A stretch of DNA of 63,460 nucleotides, the filler included. It is 8 parts of 8 records of this genome, joined end to end, with 100 filler letters (N's around TTAATTAATTAA, not from the genome) between each part and the next. Parts side by side here need not be neighbours in the genome. Positions count along the whole stretch, not along the records: positions 23,129 to 27,088 come from SRR7504441_3059; 7 more parts are not named here. The stretch is one strand, 5' to 3'. Each line of letters starts with the position of its first letter. The stretch's first letter is position 1. Shown piece after piece: positions 5,500 through 27,278 of the stretch. The translations under genes were made by a program, and so were the position numbers. A model generated the notes under the pieces. The model ran no database searches. It was not told the origin of the DNA and saw only the letters and a program-made list of their open reading frames with translations.

Positions 5500-8400
5500 T
5501 GGTGAGCTGGCTGGCCGTGGAGGTAGTCGAGCTGCTCGAGCTCGAAGGCCGGCCGGAGCTGGTCCAGCTGGTGGGCACTGAGCTCTGCCAGATGCTGATT
5601 GCGGTCGGTCGGAGCTGCGAGATCGGGCTGCACACGCTGACGGTGGTCATGCGTGGAATAGTCTTCCTGGCAAGCAAGCACCGCGCGTTGCTCGATCAGC
5701 AGCTGGCGCTGCTGCTCATCCACATCCCGCTCAGGTTGATCGAGTCGAGCGCCGCCCCGGCCGAGCACAGGGTGCTTGGGTTGGAGTGTCTGAGCTCTCT
5801 CATCCAGATAGGGCCTCTGATGCCGGAGCTGTTCATTAACCACGACTGCTGCCAGACCAGCATCCACTCGCTGCACGACACCATCCTGGGCAGCCTCCAG
5901 AAGGGCGTCTATCCGGTGCCCCCATTCCCCTCCCCAGGATCAGCTGAGCCTTCCCGGCAGCTCGGGGCTCGGGTGGAACCAATCCACGCCGCCGCTTTGC
6001 ATGGGCTGGTGGCAGTTCTCCAGGCCTCGGCTACCCGGTTGGCTAGCGGCAGCCAGGGTGATCCAGAGCTGGAGGCCGAGCTGGCCGAGTCGCGCCGGCT
6101 CAAGCTGGAGAGCCGGGCCGGAGCCAGTGTGTTCAATGCGGCTCCCAAAAAGGCGAGTCCCGAGCCAGGCGAGGCAGGCTTGAGCCAGGGAGCAGGGACT
6201 GAAGCAGCTGCCGACTTTGTGGCCTTTGGATGAGGAGAAGGCGGCCAAGTTCCTGTCGCGGAATGTCTTTATTGAAAAGAAAGCGCTCGGCGAGTTCTTT
6301 GGGTCGCAATACGAGATCGTGACCGAGCAGACAGATGCAGACCCCAAAAAGTTTGCGCTGCGCACACTCAAGGCGTTCATAGCTAACTTTGACTGGACTG
6401 GCGAGACATTTGATCGGGCTCTGCGGGAGCTGCTGCACGCCTTTAGGCTGCCGGGTGAATCTCAAATGATTGACCGGATCATGGAGGCGTTCGCAGCCCA
6501 TTATTTCGGATGCAACCCGACTGCGTTTGACTGTGCGGACACTGGGTACACTCTAGCGTTCTCGCTGATGATGCTCAACACTGATCTTTACAATCCGAGC
6601 GTCAAGAACAAGATGAGCTGTCAGGATTTCATCAGGATGAATCGCGGGATTGGTGCTCAGGGCGCCGACGTGGATCCCGATTACCTCTCGATGCTCTACT
6701 CCTCAATTAAGAAGAACGAGATACGGATGGTGTCAGAGCAGTTGCCGGAGCATCTGGGCAGCTTTGAATGGGCCGAGCTCACCAGCTCCAGCCAGCAGTA
6801 CCAAAAGGTCGACCAGCGCTGGGGGAGCCGGCTCGAGAGCCTGATGCTAGAGTCTAGCTGGTCAGGCACGGTAGCCGCGCTCTCTGTGGTGCTCGAGGCA
6901 GACGAGGTCGAGGAGCTCGATGTAGGGGTGGCAGCTCGGGGGCTGCAGCTCTGTTGCCAACTGGCTGGCCAGCTGAATCAGCCTCAGGTGCTTGAGAGCG
7001 TCATCGCACTCTATGCTAAAAAGCTGAGCCCACTCGCCCTGGAGACAGTTTCAGGGCAACAGATGGACGCGGCACTGGCTACTGATAATGCTCTGAGAGC
7101 TGTGGTCCTTGGGCTGTTTCAGGCTGCCCATGAGCATGGCCAGCTGTTTACCGGCCCGTGTTGGACCCAGCTGGTGGAGCAGGCCTGCGGGCTCAATAGA
7201 TATGGCCTGGTGGTGCCGCACAACAGTCTGTGCGAGCCGCAGGGTTCCGAGCAGCCCAGCTCACCCAGGACAATCGCGGACTCATCTGGGACTGGGTCTT
7301 GGAGCGATCTGTTTGGCGAGTCTGCCGAGAAGCAGGCGGCCAACCAGCATCGGACAGCTGCACTGGAGCTGGTTGCAACGTCTGGGCTGCTCCAGCTGTT
7401 TGCCAATGACTCCCAGTTTTTGTCTCTCGAGTCGCTTGGCATGCTTGTCTCTTCGCTGCACGCGGGTTGCAGTCCGAGTGGTGCAGCCAGCCCGAGTGGT
7501 GCAGCTAGCACTTGTCTCTGCCTGCATCTGCTTGTCGAGCTGGCGCTGCACAATCGAGATCGCTGGCACACAGTCTGGCCTCCGCTGCAGGCGGCAATCC
7601 GGGAGCTCTTGGAGCAGGAGTCCAAGCAGGTCCGGTCCAGGGCCACTGCAGCACTCATGCGGCTTTGCTCGAGGCTGGCGCATAAAGCTGAGATCTCGAC
7701 TGTGCTATTCGAGGAGGTGGGCGACTTATTTGTGCGGCCAAATGACGCAAGCCCAGAGCCGAACGCGCAGGCCGCTCAAACCGAGCTTCTCGAGTGTGTC
7801 GGGCCGCAGCTGGCGGTGGGTGTGCTTTTGGTCATTCAGAACAACTTGTTGCACATTCAGAGGTCTCAGCATGCGTGGGACACCACTATTGCGCTGATAG
7901 GCACAGTCGCGCAGGGCCCGGAGGCGGCGATTGCGCTGTCCGCGCTCGAGCATGTGGTGCTCCACAGCCGTCCATTCACCGAGGTTGTCCTGCAGCAGTG
8001 CCTTGCAGTCCTTCGCCGAATGTTGCTCGGGCCATCTGTAGGCGGCCAGACTCAGAATGCGGCACTCCTCCTTCTGCTGACGATCCAGCATCAGCTGTGT
8101 CTCCAGCAGGCCGCCCAAGACCCCTCGTGCTGGCCTGTGCTCGGAAGAGACGTGACGATGCTTCTGAGCGAGATTTGCTGCTGCAGTTCGATCTCTGATG
8201 GGTTGAGCGTGGATGCACTCGGTGGTCTGCTCGAGTTGCTAAGCTTGGGCTCCCGAGAGCCACTCAGAGTCAGTGGGTCTGAGTGGCTCTGGCTGCTTCA
8301 GAAAGTGCTCTTTCCTACACTTCATCAGCTTCAGGTGATCCCAGCCTTCCCCGCTTCCCTCACCAATAGGCAGGCATCCGAGCCTAGAGCGCCCAACTGC

Positions 8401-21175: not shown

Positions 21176-23005
21176 CTACGGTCCGCTGAGGAGCTCCCCA
21201 AGAGAAACCATTTGGCGCAGCTTGAGCCACTTTTCACTAGCTATAAAGTAGTCCACAAAAGCCTGATCGTCGCTGCTGGTGCTCTTTATGTGCCCCATCG
21301 GGAAGTACAACGACACAAACTGGCCGACTAACGGAAACTGCTCCAGCGAGCTGGTGTTGTTGTTGTCCGCCAGCGCGCTGGCCGGCACTAGATTGTAGAC
21401 TGGCTCAGACCTGGTCGCGAACTCGCTGACTGACTCAGGCTTGGCCCGCACCCCCAGCGGTTCCAGCCTTTTCAGCTGGGCAGCGATCGGCGCATTGGCC
21501 GGATCATACGACACAGTCACCGCCTCGAATGCGTTGGTCACAAAGAAGGGCAGCAGCGTGGGCGCCAGCTCGTCAAAGACCGTGTCGCTCTCGCATCGAA
21601 GCACCGTGTCTTGCCCATTGAGCGGCGGTCGCTGCAACCCAAACAGAATCGTCCTGTCCGGACCGCCGGTATGCTTGCCGTCCCCGCGCTGCGGCCCGAC
21701 CGCGTCGGCTAGGTGCTCGAGCAGCTGAAGGCAGAAGCCACGGACAGCTGGCCGCTGGATCAGATCTAGTATCTGAATGCTGAACGCGAGCTCGGTAGGC
21801 GGGGCACTACAGGCCTTTTTGGCAAGGAACGCCGGAGTGTAGTGCGCGTTGTACGCGGGAGTGGGCGACGGGATGATCACTGGGTAGCGGGTGTAACGAG
21901 AAAGCTGGCTGCGAACTGGAAACTCACCGAAAACCTCGCCCTCCTGCGGCCTAGCCTGGCATGTGAGCGCTGGGTTGCCTTCGCTCCCGACCGTGTAAAC
22001 CACCTGACTGGTCTGCTCGAACAGCTGGCGAGCGTAACTCAAGTCCCCGCCGACCGTGTTCATCGCCAGCGATATAGGCTGGTTCCGGACCAGCCAGCCC
22101 GCCAGCTGCTCCATCTGCTCCTGCCCTCCAAACTGCTCCACAGAGGTCACATCCACATAAGTCATCCGCCACTGCTCGTTGATCCCATCAGGCGGGAGCT
22201 CAGAGCCCAGCTTGTAGCATATGTTCCCGTCCTTGCCGGCCGCAGTGTACCCAGCCTCCTGCTCGAACGGCGCTGAATCGAACACACCGGCAAAGGCGCC
22301 GTTCCGAAGCGCGTCTGCAGGAGTGCTCACTGTTGGGGCGTCGACGAACATGCGCTCCATGTCGGCCGGGGTGGTCCCGCCCACGAAGGCGTGCCGGAGC
22401 GCGGTGCACTGGCCCGAGTTTTCTATCATTGCGGAGAGCTGCACGGCGTCACTGATCTCCGAAGTCATCTTCGGTGCAACCAGTGTGTTTGGGCCGCCAG
22501 TCGAGCTGATCACGTTGGGGTGGGTCTGCTTGACGGACTCGGCAACCTCGCGGCTGCTGGTGATGTACATCGTGCCGTCCGGGCAGGCGGCGAACATCTT
22601 GTGCACCTCTGGGATTGTGCATGCAGCGTACGTGACCAGCCCTGTGTCGACCCCGTGCTTTTTCATCAGCCCGAGCAGCAGATCAGCCCAACGGAACATG
22701 TGCTGGGTGGTGTTTGAGCGGGAGAGCACTACCACCGGCACCCCGAGCTCGATGTTCCGTAGCGTCTTGCGCGAGAGATCCAGGAAGTTGGAGAAATTGG
22801 AAACGCACCCGACATACGCGACCGCCCTGCAGATCTCTACTCTCCCAGCCACCTCGTCGGCCAGCAGCAGATCGTTCAGCCGGCGCTCGACCAGGTTGGC
22901 CTGGACTGACTCCTCGATCTCGGTCACGCCGTCCTGCTTCCTAAAGTCCAGCGCCTGGTTCCCGATCAGCTCGGCCGCGTGCTCAGCAAACAACTCCGCC
23001 TCCAC
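21176..23005 (-). CDS. Aldehyde dehydrogenase-superfamily protein (divergent), 5' truncated at the contig edge
   Basis: 609-aa ORF with CVSNFSNF, STGGPNTLV (cf. ELGGKNP) and IENSGQCTALR (catalytic-Cys loop, cf. xGQxCxA); preceded by an intron acceptor ...ggcggcag. Confidence 0.65.
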   Translation of the reverse strand: MEAELFAEHAAELIGNQALDFRKQDGVTEIEESVQANLVERRLNDLLLADEVAGRVEICRAVAYVGCVSNFSNFLDLSRKTLRNIELGVPVVVLSRSNTTQHMFRWADLLLGLMKKHGVDTGLVTYAACTIPEVHKMFAACPDGTMYITSSREVAESVKQTHPNVISSTGGPNTLVAPKMTSEISDAVQLSAMIENSGQCTALRHAFVGGTTPADMERMFVDAPTVSTPADALRNGAFAGVFDSAPFEQEAGYTAAGKDGNICYKLGSELPPDGINEQWRMTYVDVTSVEQFGGQEQMEQLAGWLVRNQPISLAMNTVGGDLSYARQLFEQTSQVVYTVGSEGNPALTCQARPQEGEVFGEFPVRSQLSRYTRYPVIIPSPTPAYNAHYTPAFLAKKACSAPPTELAFSIQILDLIQRPAVRGFCLQLLEHLADAVGPQRGDGKHTGGPDRTILFGLQRPPLNGQDTVLRCESDTVFDELAPTLLPFFVTNAFEAVTVSYDPANAPIAAQLKRLEPLGVRAKPESVSEFATRSEPVYNLVPASALADNNNTSSLEQFPLVGQFVSLYFPMGHIKSTSSDDQAFVDYFIASEKWLKLRQMVSLGELLSGP

Positions 23006-23298
23006 CTGCCGCCCGCTCCCCCCCCCCCNNNNNNNNNNNNNNNNNNNNNNNNNNNNNNNNNNNNNNNNNNNNTTAATTAATTAANNNNNNNNNNNNNNNN
23101 NNNNNNNNNNNNNNNNNNNNNNNNNNNNCTCCTTGCACGCACTGCGCCGCCGGCCGTGCGGACATGGCATTGCTCGTGTCAGCGGGTGTTTCGAGTGTTG
23201 ATGGACGCGTGATCCTAATGAATCAGCCACGTAATACTCCCAGAACCGGGGCAACACACGCCGGGGCAACACAGGTCGCTGGGCGCACCCCGCTAGAC

Positions 23299-24323
23299 AT
23301 GCCGCCGGTGCGGTACGGGGTCGACCACACTTACGAGCCTCCGGGCCCGGGCGACGACTGCTGCGCTTCGGAGCCCTCCGGGCAGATGCCAGCGGACGCC
23401 AACGCAGCGTACGGGGTGGTGCGCGCGGCCTACGCGATGGTGGCCGAGGACAAGGGCGGCTGCTGCGGGACCGACCGGCCCGACTCGGCCTACCTCGGAT
23501 ACTCAGGCGCCCCGCCGGGGGGGTGCCGGTGCGAGCCAGGGGTGCAGCGGAGGACTTGGCGCGGGCGGCGAGCGGGGACATCGGGCAGGGTTGCGGCAAC
23601 CCGCTGAGCTTTGCGCAGCTGCGCCCGGGCGAGACGGTGGTGGACCTCGGCTCAGGCGGCGGGATGGACTGTTTCATCGCCGGCACGCGCGTCGGGTCCA
23701 CTGGCCGGGTGATTGGAGTTGACATGACGGTATCCCCGGGTTGGATCTTTTGAGTTAATGCTGGTTCGGCAGCCGGAGATGATCTCCCGCGCGCGGGCGG
23801 CGGCGACCGAGGGCCAGCACAAGAATGTTGAGTTCAGGCTGGGCGAGATCGAGCACTTGCCCCTCCCGGATGGGGCGGCCGATTGCGTCATTTCGAATTG
23901 CGTGGTCAACCTGTCACCGGACAAGCAGCAAGTGCTTCACGAAATCTTCAGGGTGCTCCGCCCAGGCGGCCGGCTGGCGATCGCCGACGTGGTGACCGAC
24001 GCCGAGCTGCCTGATAGGCTCAAGACTGCTGAGGCGCTGGCCTGCTGAGTATCGGGTGCGGAGGCGCTCGCTTGCGGCATGACGGCCAGGCAGGCGCTTC
24101 GGACATGAACAGACTCGAGCTGATGTTGTCGGAGGCGCGTTTCGAGCGGGTCTCGATTGTGGTCAAGGAGGAGAGCCGGGAGGTTATTGCCCAGTGGATG
24201 CCCGGATCCGGCGCGGAGGAGTTTGTGGTAAGCGCCAACATCACTGCTTTCAAGCCCGAGGCACCGGTCGCTTCTTCAACGTGCGAACCGGCCAAGCCTG
24301 AATCAAGCGGCGGCTGAGCCTAA
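23299..24323 (+). CDS. AS3MT: Arsenite S-adenosylmethionine methyltransferase (ArsM/AS3MT), selenoprotein
   Basis: Exons 23299-23506, 23548-23729, 23773-24055 and 24094-end give [63 protein letters not shown](24046-48)-VSGA and [11 protein letters not shown]. The CDS ends at TGA 24317 or, if that codon is also recoded, at TAA 24323. Confidence 0.92.
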
Positions 24324-24374
24324 GCGGTGTGCTGCTACGAAGCGGTGCGAGGCGTACACAACGGCGTGAGGCGA

Positions 24375-24440
24375 GGCTTGTGCGGTATGACGGCCCTACT
24401 TTAAAGCTTAGCAAGTAGCCGGCCTGAGAATGCGCAAGCC
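24375..24440 (+). promoter_or_regulatory. Eukaryotic SECIS element (type II-like) in the AS3MT 3' UTR
   Basis: Helix I ggcttgtgc (24375-83) pairs with gcgcaagcc (24432-40). Core ATGA (24387-90) faces TGAG (24425-28). Helix II ggcc/ggcc plus ctactt/aagtag. Unpaired AAA at 24403-05, then a gc-tta-gc mini-stem. Confidence 0.9.
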
Positions 24441-24560
24441 CCACACGCAATCGAAGAATCTATCTACAACACTTTCAAGAATGATTAAAATGATAGTTTA
24501 CGAACAATAGAAGCTCACGCCAATGCTTACGATTCGGTTGCTGACCGTTCTAAAGACGCT

Positions 24561-26877
24561 ATGGGGAGATTCGAGTGGGCGCTCGTCCTGCTCCTCTCCC
24601 TTTTGCACGGAACTGGGGCCCGGTCGGCGGCCGAGTGGCGGGCGGTCCGCCAGCGGGTAGTCGATACCATATGGGACCGGGGGCTGCCGTTGGACCGCCA
24701 GCTGCCGGACCGCACGAGCCGGACAAACCACAGCCGACTGGAGCAGCTGCACTGGACCATCAACGGCTCACTGCTCGAGCTCGAGGCGAGCGCGTACTAT
24801 CACCCGCAGCCGGCTAGGAGCAAGGTGCTGGTGCTGCTGCACCACGGACACGCGTATGACAACTGGAACTATACGAGCAACTGCTTTAGATTCGGCGACT
24901 GCTACAACGAGAGCAGCAGACGGTGCGATCTGGGCTGCAGATTCTGGGATCTGAATAACGTATCCCGCTGGTTGCACCAGGAGCTTAATCTGGACTACAT
25001 GATGCTGTATATGCCGCTCATGTGGCCCAACGCTCTGCCCTTTGGCACGGCCGGAGTGGAGCACGATGCAACCGGCAATCACACCGGTCACGAGTGGCTC
25101 AGACAGTGGCAGGCGAGGGGCGAGAGCCCGATCCGTTTCTTTATTGAGCCAACAGTGCTGGCTGAATCGGCTCGGGTATGAGCAGGTGATTGTGATGGGT
25201 TTGTCCGGCGGCGGCTGGGCAACCACGCTGATTGCAGCCATCGACCCTCGGATAAAGCTCTCAGTACCGGTCGCCGGCAGTCTGCCGTGGTACCTGTTTA
25301 CGGACCATCAAGTGGGCGACTATGAGCAGAGGCCGGAGCTGTGTCGTAGGGACACGTGCACTGCAGGCTCCTGCACAGCTGATGGCTCGCGCTGCGCAGA
25401 TTGGTTTCTTACACAAGCCAACTTCACAGAGCTGTACCTGCTGGCTGCGATGGAGCCTGGGCGGACTGCGCTCCAGGTCTTGCACGAAAACGACCCTGTC
25501 TGCTTTCACGGTCGGTCAAGGCACGAGGCGATCCGTGGATACGGTGATCGGGTCGGGGCAGAGCTGGATGCAGCTTTTGGCACTGGTACTGGGTCGCACG
25601 GCGCTTTCTCCACATCGATCGTGGACTGGAATCAGCACGCCTGGGACCCGCACTCCAAGCTCTTAGTCAAGACAGTGGTTGGGCGCTGGCTTACAGGACA
25701 GTTGCGACCTGCCGACCTTGAGAAACTGCCTTGTGACATTCTTCATCATAATTCGACGGCAGTTACATGCCCAGAGCCACCGCCATGCGCCGGTATTAGT
25801 ACCCACCGCACAGCGCTGGCTGGGAGGACCCCTCCTGTGCTGACCCCTGGGTATTTTGGCGCCAACGGGAGCACAGTGAGGTGCAACTCGAGCTGGGGGC
25901 ATGGACGGAGCCTGGCGCCGCAGCCGGAGAATAGCAGGTCTGTAACATTCTGGGGGAGCTGGAGCACCCCGTGCAGCGCTGACTGGGGATTCACAGCCGC
26001 GCATCCGCTCGGCACACCGGCAGGGGCTAGCCGCGGTTTCTTCCCTTCGTGTGACCAGGAGTACGGACCGAGCGTGGAGGCCGATTTGGAGCTCGAGGGG
26101 GGAGGGCTGATGCATCTAATACGGACCGTATCGGATCGTACCGGCCCGTTCAGAGGATACACGTCGGATGGCCAGCCGCCGAGCGGGGCCAATGCGCACA
26201 TTGCTGCTACTTACACCGACTTCAACCCAATTTACCAGGTCTCAGAACCCAATCGGATGAAGCCGTTTGCCAATGCAAAAAGTATGGTGCTCAGGGCAAA
26301 GCAGGCAGTCACGAGGGCTACGCTACCAGATCCGATCACACAACAGCTTCAGCAGGATATGACGGTGTGTTTGATCAACGAGCGGTGTAACGAGACCGCC
26401 TCGAGCTCCTTCTGCCAGATTGGGTTCAACATAAAGACTCACATATCGGGCGTGAACGCAAATGCCCCCTCTGACGACGCGACCGTCCTTAACGACCAAG
26501 GCCAGGGGGGGCTCATCGTTGTTCTGGGTCCTGTCAATGCATATGGCAAAAGCACAAGCTTTTCACTGGGCAAGCGCAAGTTGGTTGCGTGGACCTCAGG
26601 TGGCAACGAGACTCAGTCTGGGACCTTTGGACTAAGCCGTTTCCAGATCGAGGTCAGCTGGACGAGCTTTCTGGGGCTCCTGAGGGCGGTCGTACCCAGC
26701 CCAGAGGGCACCTATGGACCGGAGTGGGACCAGCCAGAGGCCTGGGTGCTGCTCCGGGCTGGATATGGCCAAGAGAACTTCAACAATGATACTAGCGGCT
26801 CCACCAGTGTAATTGAGGGCTGGATCGAGTCGCTCGAGGTGCTGAGCGCTGATCCCAGCATTCCTAGCCTAGGCTAG
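24561..26877 (+). CDS. Secreted alpha/beta-hydrolase with a C-terminal unknown domain; intronless, frameshift at ~25160
   Basis: Signal peptide MGRFEWALVLLLSLLHGTGA; LVLLHHGH; nucleophile elbow VMGLSGGGW; AAIDPRIKLSVPVAGSLP; HENDPVCF; NQHAWD. The two ORFs join out of frame between RFFIEPTVLA and LNRLGYEQ. Confidence 0.75.
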
Positions 26878-27278
26878 CTATAGGCTAGCTACATGTAGTG
26901 ATGGCTAGCCTGATCATGATGTGGCACCTGACTATACAATATCAATTGTGCACAGCTCGTATTACGAGTATTGTGTGGTTCAGATTTTTATCAGACGGAA
27001 TCCAATTCGCTAGATTCGAGCCGACCTGGAAACCGATCGTTAGTCCATTCTCCATTCTAGGCTCCGGAGGGAAGCCCTCGTGTGTCCCNNNNNNNNNNNN
27101 NNNNNNNNNNNNNNNNNNNNNNNNNNNNNNNNTTAATTAATTAANNNNNNNNNNNNNNNNNNNNNNNNNNNNNNNNNNNNNNNNNNNNATAATTTTATAG
27201 AGAGAAGATGCGCACATTGGTCTTTGCACGCTATTTGCACGCTCTTAGCAGGCTTTTTGCTTACATGTACAATCTGAA

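Follow-up and report, generated by a model that had tools for sequence, protein, structure and literature searches.

An arsenite methyltransferase gene (ArsM/AS3MT) of a marine protist, which spans four exons at 23299-24323 on the plus strand of the DNA analysed here, contains two in-frame TGA codons, and we find that the second of these, at the very end of the gene, is probably a conserved codon for selenocysteine (Sec) on a disordered, Cys-bearing tail. The DNA, hereafter the window, is a stretch of 63,460 nucleotides (nt) made of eight contigs joined end to end with filler between them, and the gene lies in the part that comes from SRR7504441_3059 (positions 23,129 to 27,088). In the model that we derive from sequence comparison, the first TGA (24046-24048) would place Sec where ArsM enzymes have an arsenic-binding Cys, in a C-V-S-G-A motif; a single selenocysteine insertion sequence (SECIS) element in the 3' untranslated region (UTR) would recode the terminal TGA as well; and translation would stop at the TAA at 24321-24323. 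We read the terminal TGA as Sec because it is kept in lineages whose tails have diverged beyond alignment, AT-rich ones included, because the second stop that follows it is never TGA, because members of the family that lack a tail use TAG, and because Cys is enriched on either side of it.

The codons at 24279-24314 are ACG TGC GAA CCG GCC AAG CCT GAA TCA AGC GGC GGC, then TGA GCC TAA, and under the two-Sec reading the protein ends ...PESSGG-Sec-Ala. A first-pass annotation of the window had already described this ending of TGA, one codon and TAA, and the sequence matches its description, although the start it gave, 24278, is one base early (24279). Its two measurements also hold: it had put the TGA about 70 nt upstream of the SECIS core, which starts at 24387 (70 nt, counted from the final TGA base), and a Cys 11 residues before the TGA, which is the TGC at 24282-24284. 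The element itself matches the Rfam model SECIS_1 over its full length at 24376-24439 (24.6 bits, E 0.067). It is the only SECIS that we found and would serve both TGA codons, at distances in the mRNA of ~300 nt from the first and 70 nt from the terminal one. An RNA contig that covers 24186-24485 shows zero differences to the window, so that the mRNA contains the SECIS as well as the TGA-GCC-TAA ending; RNA contigs, all from marine metatranscriptomes, cover the SECIS up to 24485-24500.

We set this ending against the chance level in the window. Among stop-to-stop frames of at least 100 amino acids (aa), 149 of 246 end in TGA, 3 of them with a TAA or TAG no more than two codons further on; among frames of at least 150 aa the corresponding count is 2 of 111. 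With a chance rate of 3/246, the ending of a single gene is therefore only mildly unusual, and the case rests on relatives. Two other long frames in the window with TGA-TAA/TAG endings (at 7895 and 37232) lack Gly or Cys before the TGA, have no obvious SECIS and look like chance.

A search of a protein collection with exon 4, its TGA read as Sec, yielded 22 short proteins. All of them begin after the first Sec site, as would be expected from gene callers that stop at a Sec codon, and their tails are variable and unalignable, with a last residue of G in 11, C in 4, S in 3, A in 2 and D in 2. A longer relative (P0001, 139 aa) was set aside, as its match is limited to the conserved core of exon 4 and leaves out the tail. 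We scanned metagenome contigs with an alignment of the short relatives and kept the best 80 of 255 related stretches. The active-site position is TGA in 45 of these 80 loci (Sec-type) and Cys in 35 (Cys-type). Sec-type locus L045, which runs off its contig, was left out, and the other 79 fell into 53 clusters at 85% identity, 30 of them Sec-type and 23 Cys-type, which we treat as lineages.

The ending of TGA, zero or one codon and TAA or TAG is present in 25 of the 30 Sec-type clusters (38 of 44 loci). Two further lineages bring the total to 27 of 30: L008, which has a 1-nt frame change followed by the same ..RS-TGA-TAA ending as L006, and L079, which ends ..VGC-TGA-GGT-TAA after an earlier in-frame TGA. 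Among Cys-type clusters, by comparison, the ending occurs in 1 of 23 (L064, TGA-TAA; Fisher p 4.0e-9 versus Sec-type). As a second control we examined 80 loci from prokaryotic species genomes, picked by the same query; none of the 80 is Sec-type, 48 end in TGA, and none has a TAA or TAG within one codon after it. These counts strongly support the first-pass proposal, in which the terminal TGA encodes a second Sec and is not a stop. That annotation had also suggested that orthologues be compared for a GG-(TGA or TGY)-x-stop ending, and the ending is recovered in a looser form, [C/G/S/A/K]-TGA followed by zero or one codon and TAA or TAG. L079 carries three in-frame TGAs in all (1047-1097: at the active site, after ..KKGGG, and in ..AVGC-TGA-GGT-TAA) and either encodes three Sec residues or contains a sequencing error. 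L043 and L054, which have residues after the TGA in common, were rejected as closely related bacterial Cys-type genes that end in CC.

Such a pattern could in principle be a sampling artefact, inherited once and seen repeatedly in a few related organisms, in paralogues or in chimeras. The loci do come from environmental contigs, some clusters hold near-identical copies (six loci in the L024 group), and two contigs are odd, L008 with its frameshift and L012. The latter is the sole tailed Sec-type locus with a TAA end; telomere-like CCCTAA-type repeats flank its ArsM fragment on both sides, and the contig is probably a chimeric or sub-telomeric assembly. Yet 85% identity was the threshold for clustering, and identity to L001 among the 17 full-length relatives is 47-70%; their tails cannot be aligned save for the last column. 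Tail lengths and tail sequences are wholly different, different lineages have different codons after the TGA, the SECIS core is ATGA in some and GTGA in others, and tail-less members of the same family (L022 and L053/L055) have a TAG stop right after the folded domain. An artefact of this kind therefore seems to us very improbable, and we continue on the reading that the terminal TGA encodes a conserved Sec.

The residues that flank the TGA are restricted. Across the 27 lineages the preceding residue is C in 13, G in 6, S in 5, A in 2 and K in 1, and what follows is nothing in 12, C in 5, G in 5, R in 3, A in 1 and Q in 1. The codon after the TGA varies synonymously (TGT/TGC, GGT/GGC, CGC/CGA, GCT/GCC), and CAA also occurs. 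The GG-TGA-GCC-TAA of the window falls within this pattern. Cys is present in all 25 tails that could be parsed directly, and 22 of the 25 contain CU, UC or C-x4-U (Cys-Sec in 12, Sec-Cys in 5, C-x4-Sec in 6).

A different explanation is that the TGA is an ordinary terminator and the TAA a fail-safe stop, favoured by the leakiness that a SECIS creates, with the Sec-Ala extension as an unselected by-product. TGA is the commonest stop among the long frames of the GC-rich window, tandem stops do arise by chance, both there (at the rate given above) and in the Cys-type loci L064, L075/L078 and L077, and the spacing between UGA and SECIS is at the reported lower limit for decoding. A single G-to-A change, however, would convert the TGA into a clean TAA, and still 27 of 30 diverged lineages retain the TGA, even the AT-rich L011, L027 and L057. 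The second stop in the 27 lineages is TAA in 26 and TAG in 1, and tail-less Sec-type genes, as noted, terminate with TAG. Nor would a codon that is not translated be expected to have restricted, Cys-enriched neighbours. We consider a fail-safe stop improbable as an account of the ending, and the comparison favours a Sec codon.

We also asked whether the relatives carry SECIS elements at suitable positions. A strict pattern scan missed even the element of the window and was replaced by a heuristic scan based on duplex energy, which places the window element at the same site as Rfam. With this heuristic (an ATGA or GTGA core, AA 12-13 nt further on, two helices), 16 of the 27 lineages have a SECIS-like element after the terminal TGA. 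The calls in other loci are heuristic, and those for L002, L004, L005, L011, L020, L052 and L059 are sequence read by eye; in Rfam scans of many loci, sub-threshold SECIS_1 matches coincided with heuristic sites in L007, L009 and L013 only. When 15 candidates (the window and 14 relatives) were aligned with MAFFT, only their 5' halves aligned, with core, AA motif and spacing all invariant. The core lies 66-86 nt from the terminal TGA in six lineages and in the window, and 129-247 nt from it in the rest. To our knowledge, 66-86 nt would be the shortest natural spacing between a UGA and its SECIS. The long genomic contigs all carry the GTGA type, a type described for Ostreococcus (Lobanov et al. 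2007, PMC2375036; this and the other papers are cited here from the parts consulted). For UGA-SECIS spacing, a review of the vertebrate selenoproteome gives an experimental minimum of 51-111 nt and a mammalian range of 207-5207 nt (PMC3316567).

We considered, and rejected, the idea that a conserved stem-loop generally follows the terminal TGA in this family, since only 5 of 20 folded sequences have one, and in the window and 14 others it is either missing or below significance. A stem-loop just after a UGA resembles the Sec redefinition element of SELENON. The five strong cases lie a few bases after TGA-TAA (L003:866-927, L006:1108-1169, L007:1005-1066, L011:977-1038 and L027:1205-1266), with z from -2.5 to -3.8 versus shuffles.

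These features bear on a third possibility, that the TGA is a dual-purpose codon which yields both a truncated protein (...GG) and a full one (...GG-Sec-Ala), in proportions that would depend on selenium supply and on the closeness of the SECIS to the UGA, so that Sec is a regulated option. Similar behaviour has come up in discussions of SELENOS and of the second UGA in type 2 deiodinase. The 70-nt spacing of the window, set against the reported minimum, fits this idea; strong stem-loops in 5 of the 20 folded sequences would mean that decoding aids vary among lineages, and 3 of 30 lineages lack the codon altogether. The strict conservation of the ending argues, on the other side, for selection on the Sec form, while it is silent on the amount made. 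We regard a dual-purpose codon as unlikely, more credible all the same than a fail-safe stop; it overlaps with our preferred explanation of a conserved second Sec and does not contradict it.

Several points weigh against a conserved second Sec codon. Sec insertion by the ribosome at the terminal TGA is something that we infer from conservation only, and the lineages are clusters of metatranscriptome and metagenome contigs whose independence is judged by sequence divergence alone. The terminal TGA is missing in three of the 30 Sec-type lineages (L012, L022 and L053/L055) and is therefore not essential to the enzyme. Because the tails cannot be aligned, the 'same position' in different lineages means only the last or next-to-last residue. 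The SECIS_1 score of the window element is below the Rfam gathering score of 35. Its core begins 70 nt, and its stem 58 nt, after the terminal TGA, inside the range reported for the experimental minimum and far short of any mammalian case; at this lower limit decoding could therefore be inefficient or partial. Folding against shuffles gives no significant stem-loop after the terminal TGA of the window (z +0.42), and its Sec has no adjoining Cys, the nearest being 11 residues off. A C-terminally truncated algal ArsM is reportedly active in vitro, and the two versions of tail function that we set out below are not separated by the present data.

The catalytic part of the protein matches the ArsM family. 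With exons scored separately, NF008823 (arsenite methyltransferase) is the best NCBIfam match for exons 2 and 3, and exon 3 matches the ArsM chains 5evj, 8xt7 and 4fs8 in the PDB; a PDB sequence search with exon 4 gave no match. Five of six full-length relatives pass the NF008823 cut-off of 263 (273-287 bits), and L024 scores 248.5. ArsM proteins have four conserved Cys positions, at an N-terminal Cys and in GCGNP, SNCV and C-[VI]-[AS]-G-A motifs (PMC6138428). The spliced translation of the window holds all four, in ..GGCCG.., ..GQGCGNP.., ..ISNCVVN.. and ..AC-U-VSGA.., where U is Sec at the fourth. Their correspondence with residue numbers in the solved algal enzyme is by motif only, as the PDB alignments end five residues short of the fourth position.

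The first TGA aligns with TGA in the 45 Sec-type loci and with Cys in 108 parsed Cys-type loci (from the L001-L160 set). A Cys stands right before the active-site Sec in 44 of the 45 Sec-type loci, with C-A-U in L023, and the dyad of the window is at 24043-24048. In the 108 Cys-type loci, the residue at that place is never Cys (G in 94, A in 8, S in 4, F in 1 and Y in 1). Restriction of the C-U dyad to Sec forms suggests, at the level of sequence, a selenenylsulfide step in the catalytic cycle that would be specific to Sec-type ArsM and absent from the Cys-type. Four loci have an extra N-terminal region of ~120 residues, for example ..VCVLFYAEWS.. (L013:13-390, L023:37-450, L046:43-420 and L052:64-450, all approximate), which looks thioredoxin-fold-like by eye and has no Pfam match. 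The ArsM N-terminal Cys pair is lacking in L046, L052 and L068.

In thioredoxin reductase (TrxR), with its Gly-Cys-Sec-Gly tail, and near the ends of SELENOS and SELENOK, Sec is the last or next-to-last residue of a flexible tail that is followed by a stop other than UGA. The first-pass annotation had likened the tail of the window to that of SELENOS, a likeness that proved particular to this one tail. The commonest ending among relatives is Cys-Sec (the 12 of 25 tails counted above), and L052, L068 and L079 end in exactly GCUG, which is closer to TrxR. The methyltransferase has no sequence or fold relation to TrxR, SELENOS or SELENOK, its catalytic domain being an S-adenosylmethionine (SAM) methyltransferase, and the window itself has GG-U-A where TrxR has GCUG, with its Cys at -11; by analogy, it may work like such a tail.

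The ArsM family itself offers a parallel. Vicinal thiols at the protein end, as in the Sec tails, also occur in Cys-type ArsM, where 32 of the 108 loci have CC-x3-CC and 5 of the 108 end in CC. Some Sec tails (CCPPGK-Sec, CCAPGA-Sec) keep the CC-x3-CC spacing but have Sec where the last Cys would be, while the terminal TGA has no column-level alignment with Cys. SaoC, a 'Cys-Cys-COOH' selenoprotein with a terminal CU, is likewise similar (PMC13188914). The Cys-type tails differ in having no Sec, and SaoC, which does have Sec, is an unrelated small bacterial protein. Two further features of the tails stand apart from these: in L005, L009/L010 and L057, His-Gly repeats ((HGGG)n, HGHGHG) with a metal-binding-like look immediately precede the terminal Sec, and the L024, L025, L028 and L047 groups, which are on long contigs with GTGA-type SECIS, have a long tail with a conserved ..ARHHA.HTD.. 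before ..GC-U or ..C-U-R.

ArsM or MT selenoproteins have been catalogued in bacteria and algae (PMC2398784, PMC2375036, PMC7539508, PMC13188914). The algal MT selenoprotein, an arsenite S-adenosylmethyltransferase (PRK11873) of Ostreococcus, Thalassiosira and other algae, shares with the window gene its family, its ArsM fold, a Sec at the arsenic-binding Cys and one 3'-UTR SECIS (PMC2375036, PMC2398784, PMC7539508). Where these sources list it, in the sections consulted, they do so without a second, C-terminal Sec, the feature that we propose here; likewise, the multi-Sec cases given in the consulted part of a 2020 algal survey are PDI_e, SELENOW and SELENOJ, not MT (Jiang et al., PMC7539508). 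Our literature searches, with the survey supplements and Haft & Tolstoy 2025 outside their scope, found no report of a terminal Sec in a eukaryotic ArsM, and we regard it provisionally as new.

The first-pass statement that there is no characterised example has to be qualified, as catalogues already list ArsM-like proteins of bacteria that have two Sec residues, one of them near the end of the protein (NF047649, PMC13188914), and the design is therefore not without precedent. A table in that paper, in the part consulted, attributes to Haft & Tolstoy 2025 a bacterial double selenoprotein, methyltransferase/UXPK-star (NF047649), together with ArsM/DUF2284 and ArsM/AhpD multi-Sec forms. NF047649 resembles the window gene in being an ArsM-like methyltransferase with an active-site Sec in UxxG and, a few residues before the C-terminus, a second Sec. 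The window and its relatives nevertheless score far below the NF047649 cut-off of 460 bits (83 for exon 3, 51 for exon 2 and 144-161 for full-length eukaryotic relatives). The endings differ too: U-X-P-K-stop in NF047649, as read from the family name only, versus U-A-stop in the window and U-stop or U-[C/G/R/A/Q]-stop in its relatives. In the eukaryotic case, moreover, one 3'-UTR SECIS would serve both codons, whereas bacteria use a local hairpin for each UGA (PMC13188914).

To consider what a second Sec might do, we examined an AlphaFold2 model of L001, the closest full-length relative, built from a 17-sequence alignment (mean predicted local distance difference test (pLDDT) 82, predicted template modelling score (pTM) 0.80). 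The last strand of the model is at 246-255 and is followed by a 34-residue tail without secondary structure, with pLDDT of 50, 66 and 47 in successive blocks, which is consistent with a flexible arm. In the published ArsM cycle, As(III) is taken from its glutathione (GSH) conjugates, As(GS)3, by thiol/ligand exchange, and enzyme disulfides form that need reduction by thioredoxin or GSH (PMC6138428). On the basis of the unstructured tail, the likeness to CC-x3-CC and this cycle, we propose that the tail, with Sec and at least one nearby Cys, would act as a mobile thiol/selenol arm.

Two versions of such an arm can be drawn by analogy, and they are not mutually exclusive. In the version that we prefer, to which we give somewhat less than an even chance, the arm would capture As(III) or methyl-As(III) and hand it over by ligand exchange to the Cys/Cys-Sec site, and the tail would be the selenium counterpart of the CC-x3-CC clusters found at the end of many bacterial ArsM proteins. 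In the other, which is possible and to which we give rather less weight, the arm would act like the GCUG tail of TrxR: thioredoxin or glutathione would supply the reducing equivalents, and the arm would pass them on to the disulfide or selenenylsulfide that forms in each cycle.

The gene structure that underlies this analysis is given in Table 1. All three introns are very short, and each is skipped exactly in RNA contigs; the first is GC..AG and not GT..AG. Its cut can be slid by 3 bases, and the frame is kept only with the placement shown. For intron 3 we chose the 38-nt form over a 41-nt model because an RNA contig from run X1 lacks 38 nt at this place, a junction that gives ..EALAC-U-VSGASDMN... 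An N run at 23029-23128 around the linker TTAATTAATTAA marks a contig join 170 nt upstream of the ATG, and the 5' end and promoter of the ArsM gene may therefore be incomplete. A long open frame on the minus strand (21176-23028, 634 aa, into the N gap) stands head-to-head with the ArsM gene.

Table 1. Features of the arsenite methyltransferase gene, in window coordinates
Feature	Position	Strand	Description and support
Exon 1	23299..23506	+	ATG to ...AYLGYS plus 1 base of the next codon; N-terminal Cys pair ..KGGCCG..; scripted gene model
Intron 1	23507..23547	+	41 nt, GC..AG; skipped in an RNA contig of run X3
Exon 2	23548..23729	+	Ends ...VIGVDMT; SAM-binding GxGxG region, conserved GCGNP Cys; Pfam Methyltransf_31, NF008823 85 bits
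Intron 2	23730..23772	+	43 nt, GT..AG; skipped in RNA contigs of runs X1 and X3
Exon 3	23773..24055	+	PEMISRAR...AEALAC-U-VS plus G; first in-frame TGA; Methyltransf_31 E 2.5e-22, NF008823 140.7 bits
First Sec codon, TGA	24046..24048	+	Arsenic-binding Cys position of the C-[VI]-[AS]-G-A motif; Cys precedes (C-U dyad)
Intron 3	24056..24093	+	38 nt, GT..AG; skipped in an RNA contig of run X1
Exon 4, coding part	24094..24323	+	Ends in tail and TGA GCC TAA; 22 related fragments, related loci
C-terminal tail	24258..24320	+	Rich in Pro, Ala, Ser and Gly; one Cys (TGC 24282-24284)
Terminal TGA, proposed second Sec codon (penultimate residue)	24315..24317	+	Ending kept in relatives
GCC (Ala), then TAA	24318..24323	+	True stop would be TAA 24321-24323 under the two-Sec reading
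SECIS element, 3' UTR	24376..24439	+	Rfam SECIS_1; ATGA core 24387-24390, AAA apical, GA on the 3' side

Taken to its furthest extent, the proposal would be that most marine eukaryotic ArsM selenoenzymes carry an overlooked terminal Sec and are self-sufficient, with an arm that harvests nanomolar arsenite and recycles the Cys-Sec centre, a UGA 66-86 nt from the SECIS and, in some lineages, a stem-loop after UGA-UAA that aids decoding; in this full form we think the proposal rather unlikely. If the terminal Sec itself is real, current gene models and selenoproteome catalogues cut the enzyme twice, at the active site and in the tail, and under-count selenium demand. UGA-SECIS spacings in the family range naturally from 66 to ~250 nt, and a stem-loop follows the UGA in some members but not in others; this variation gives a direct way to test an old question, that of the minimum spacing and the context with which eukaryotes decode Sec. 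The 'mobile selenol arm', a design known so far from TrxR and a few small selenoproteins, would be extended to metalloid metabolism. Marine phytoplankton methylate much of the ocean's arsenic, and a second Sec in this enzyme would tie selenium supply to arsenic detoxification in these organisms.

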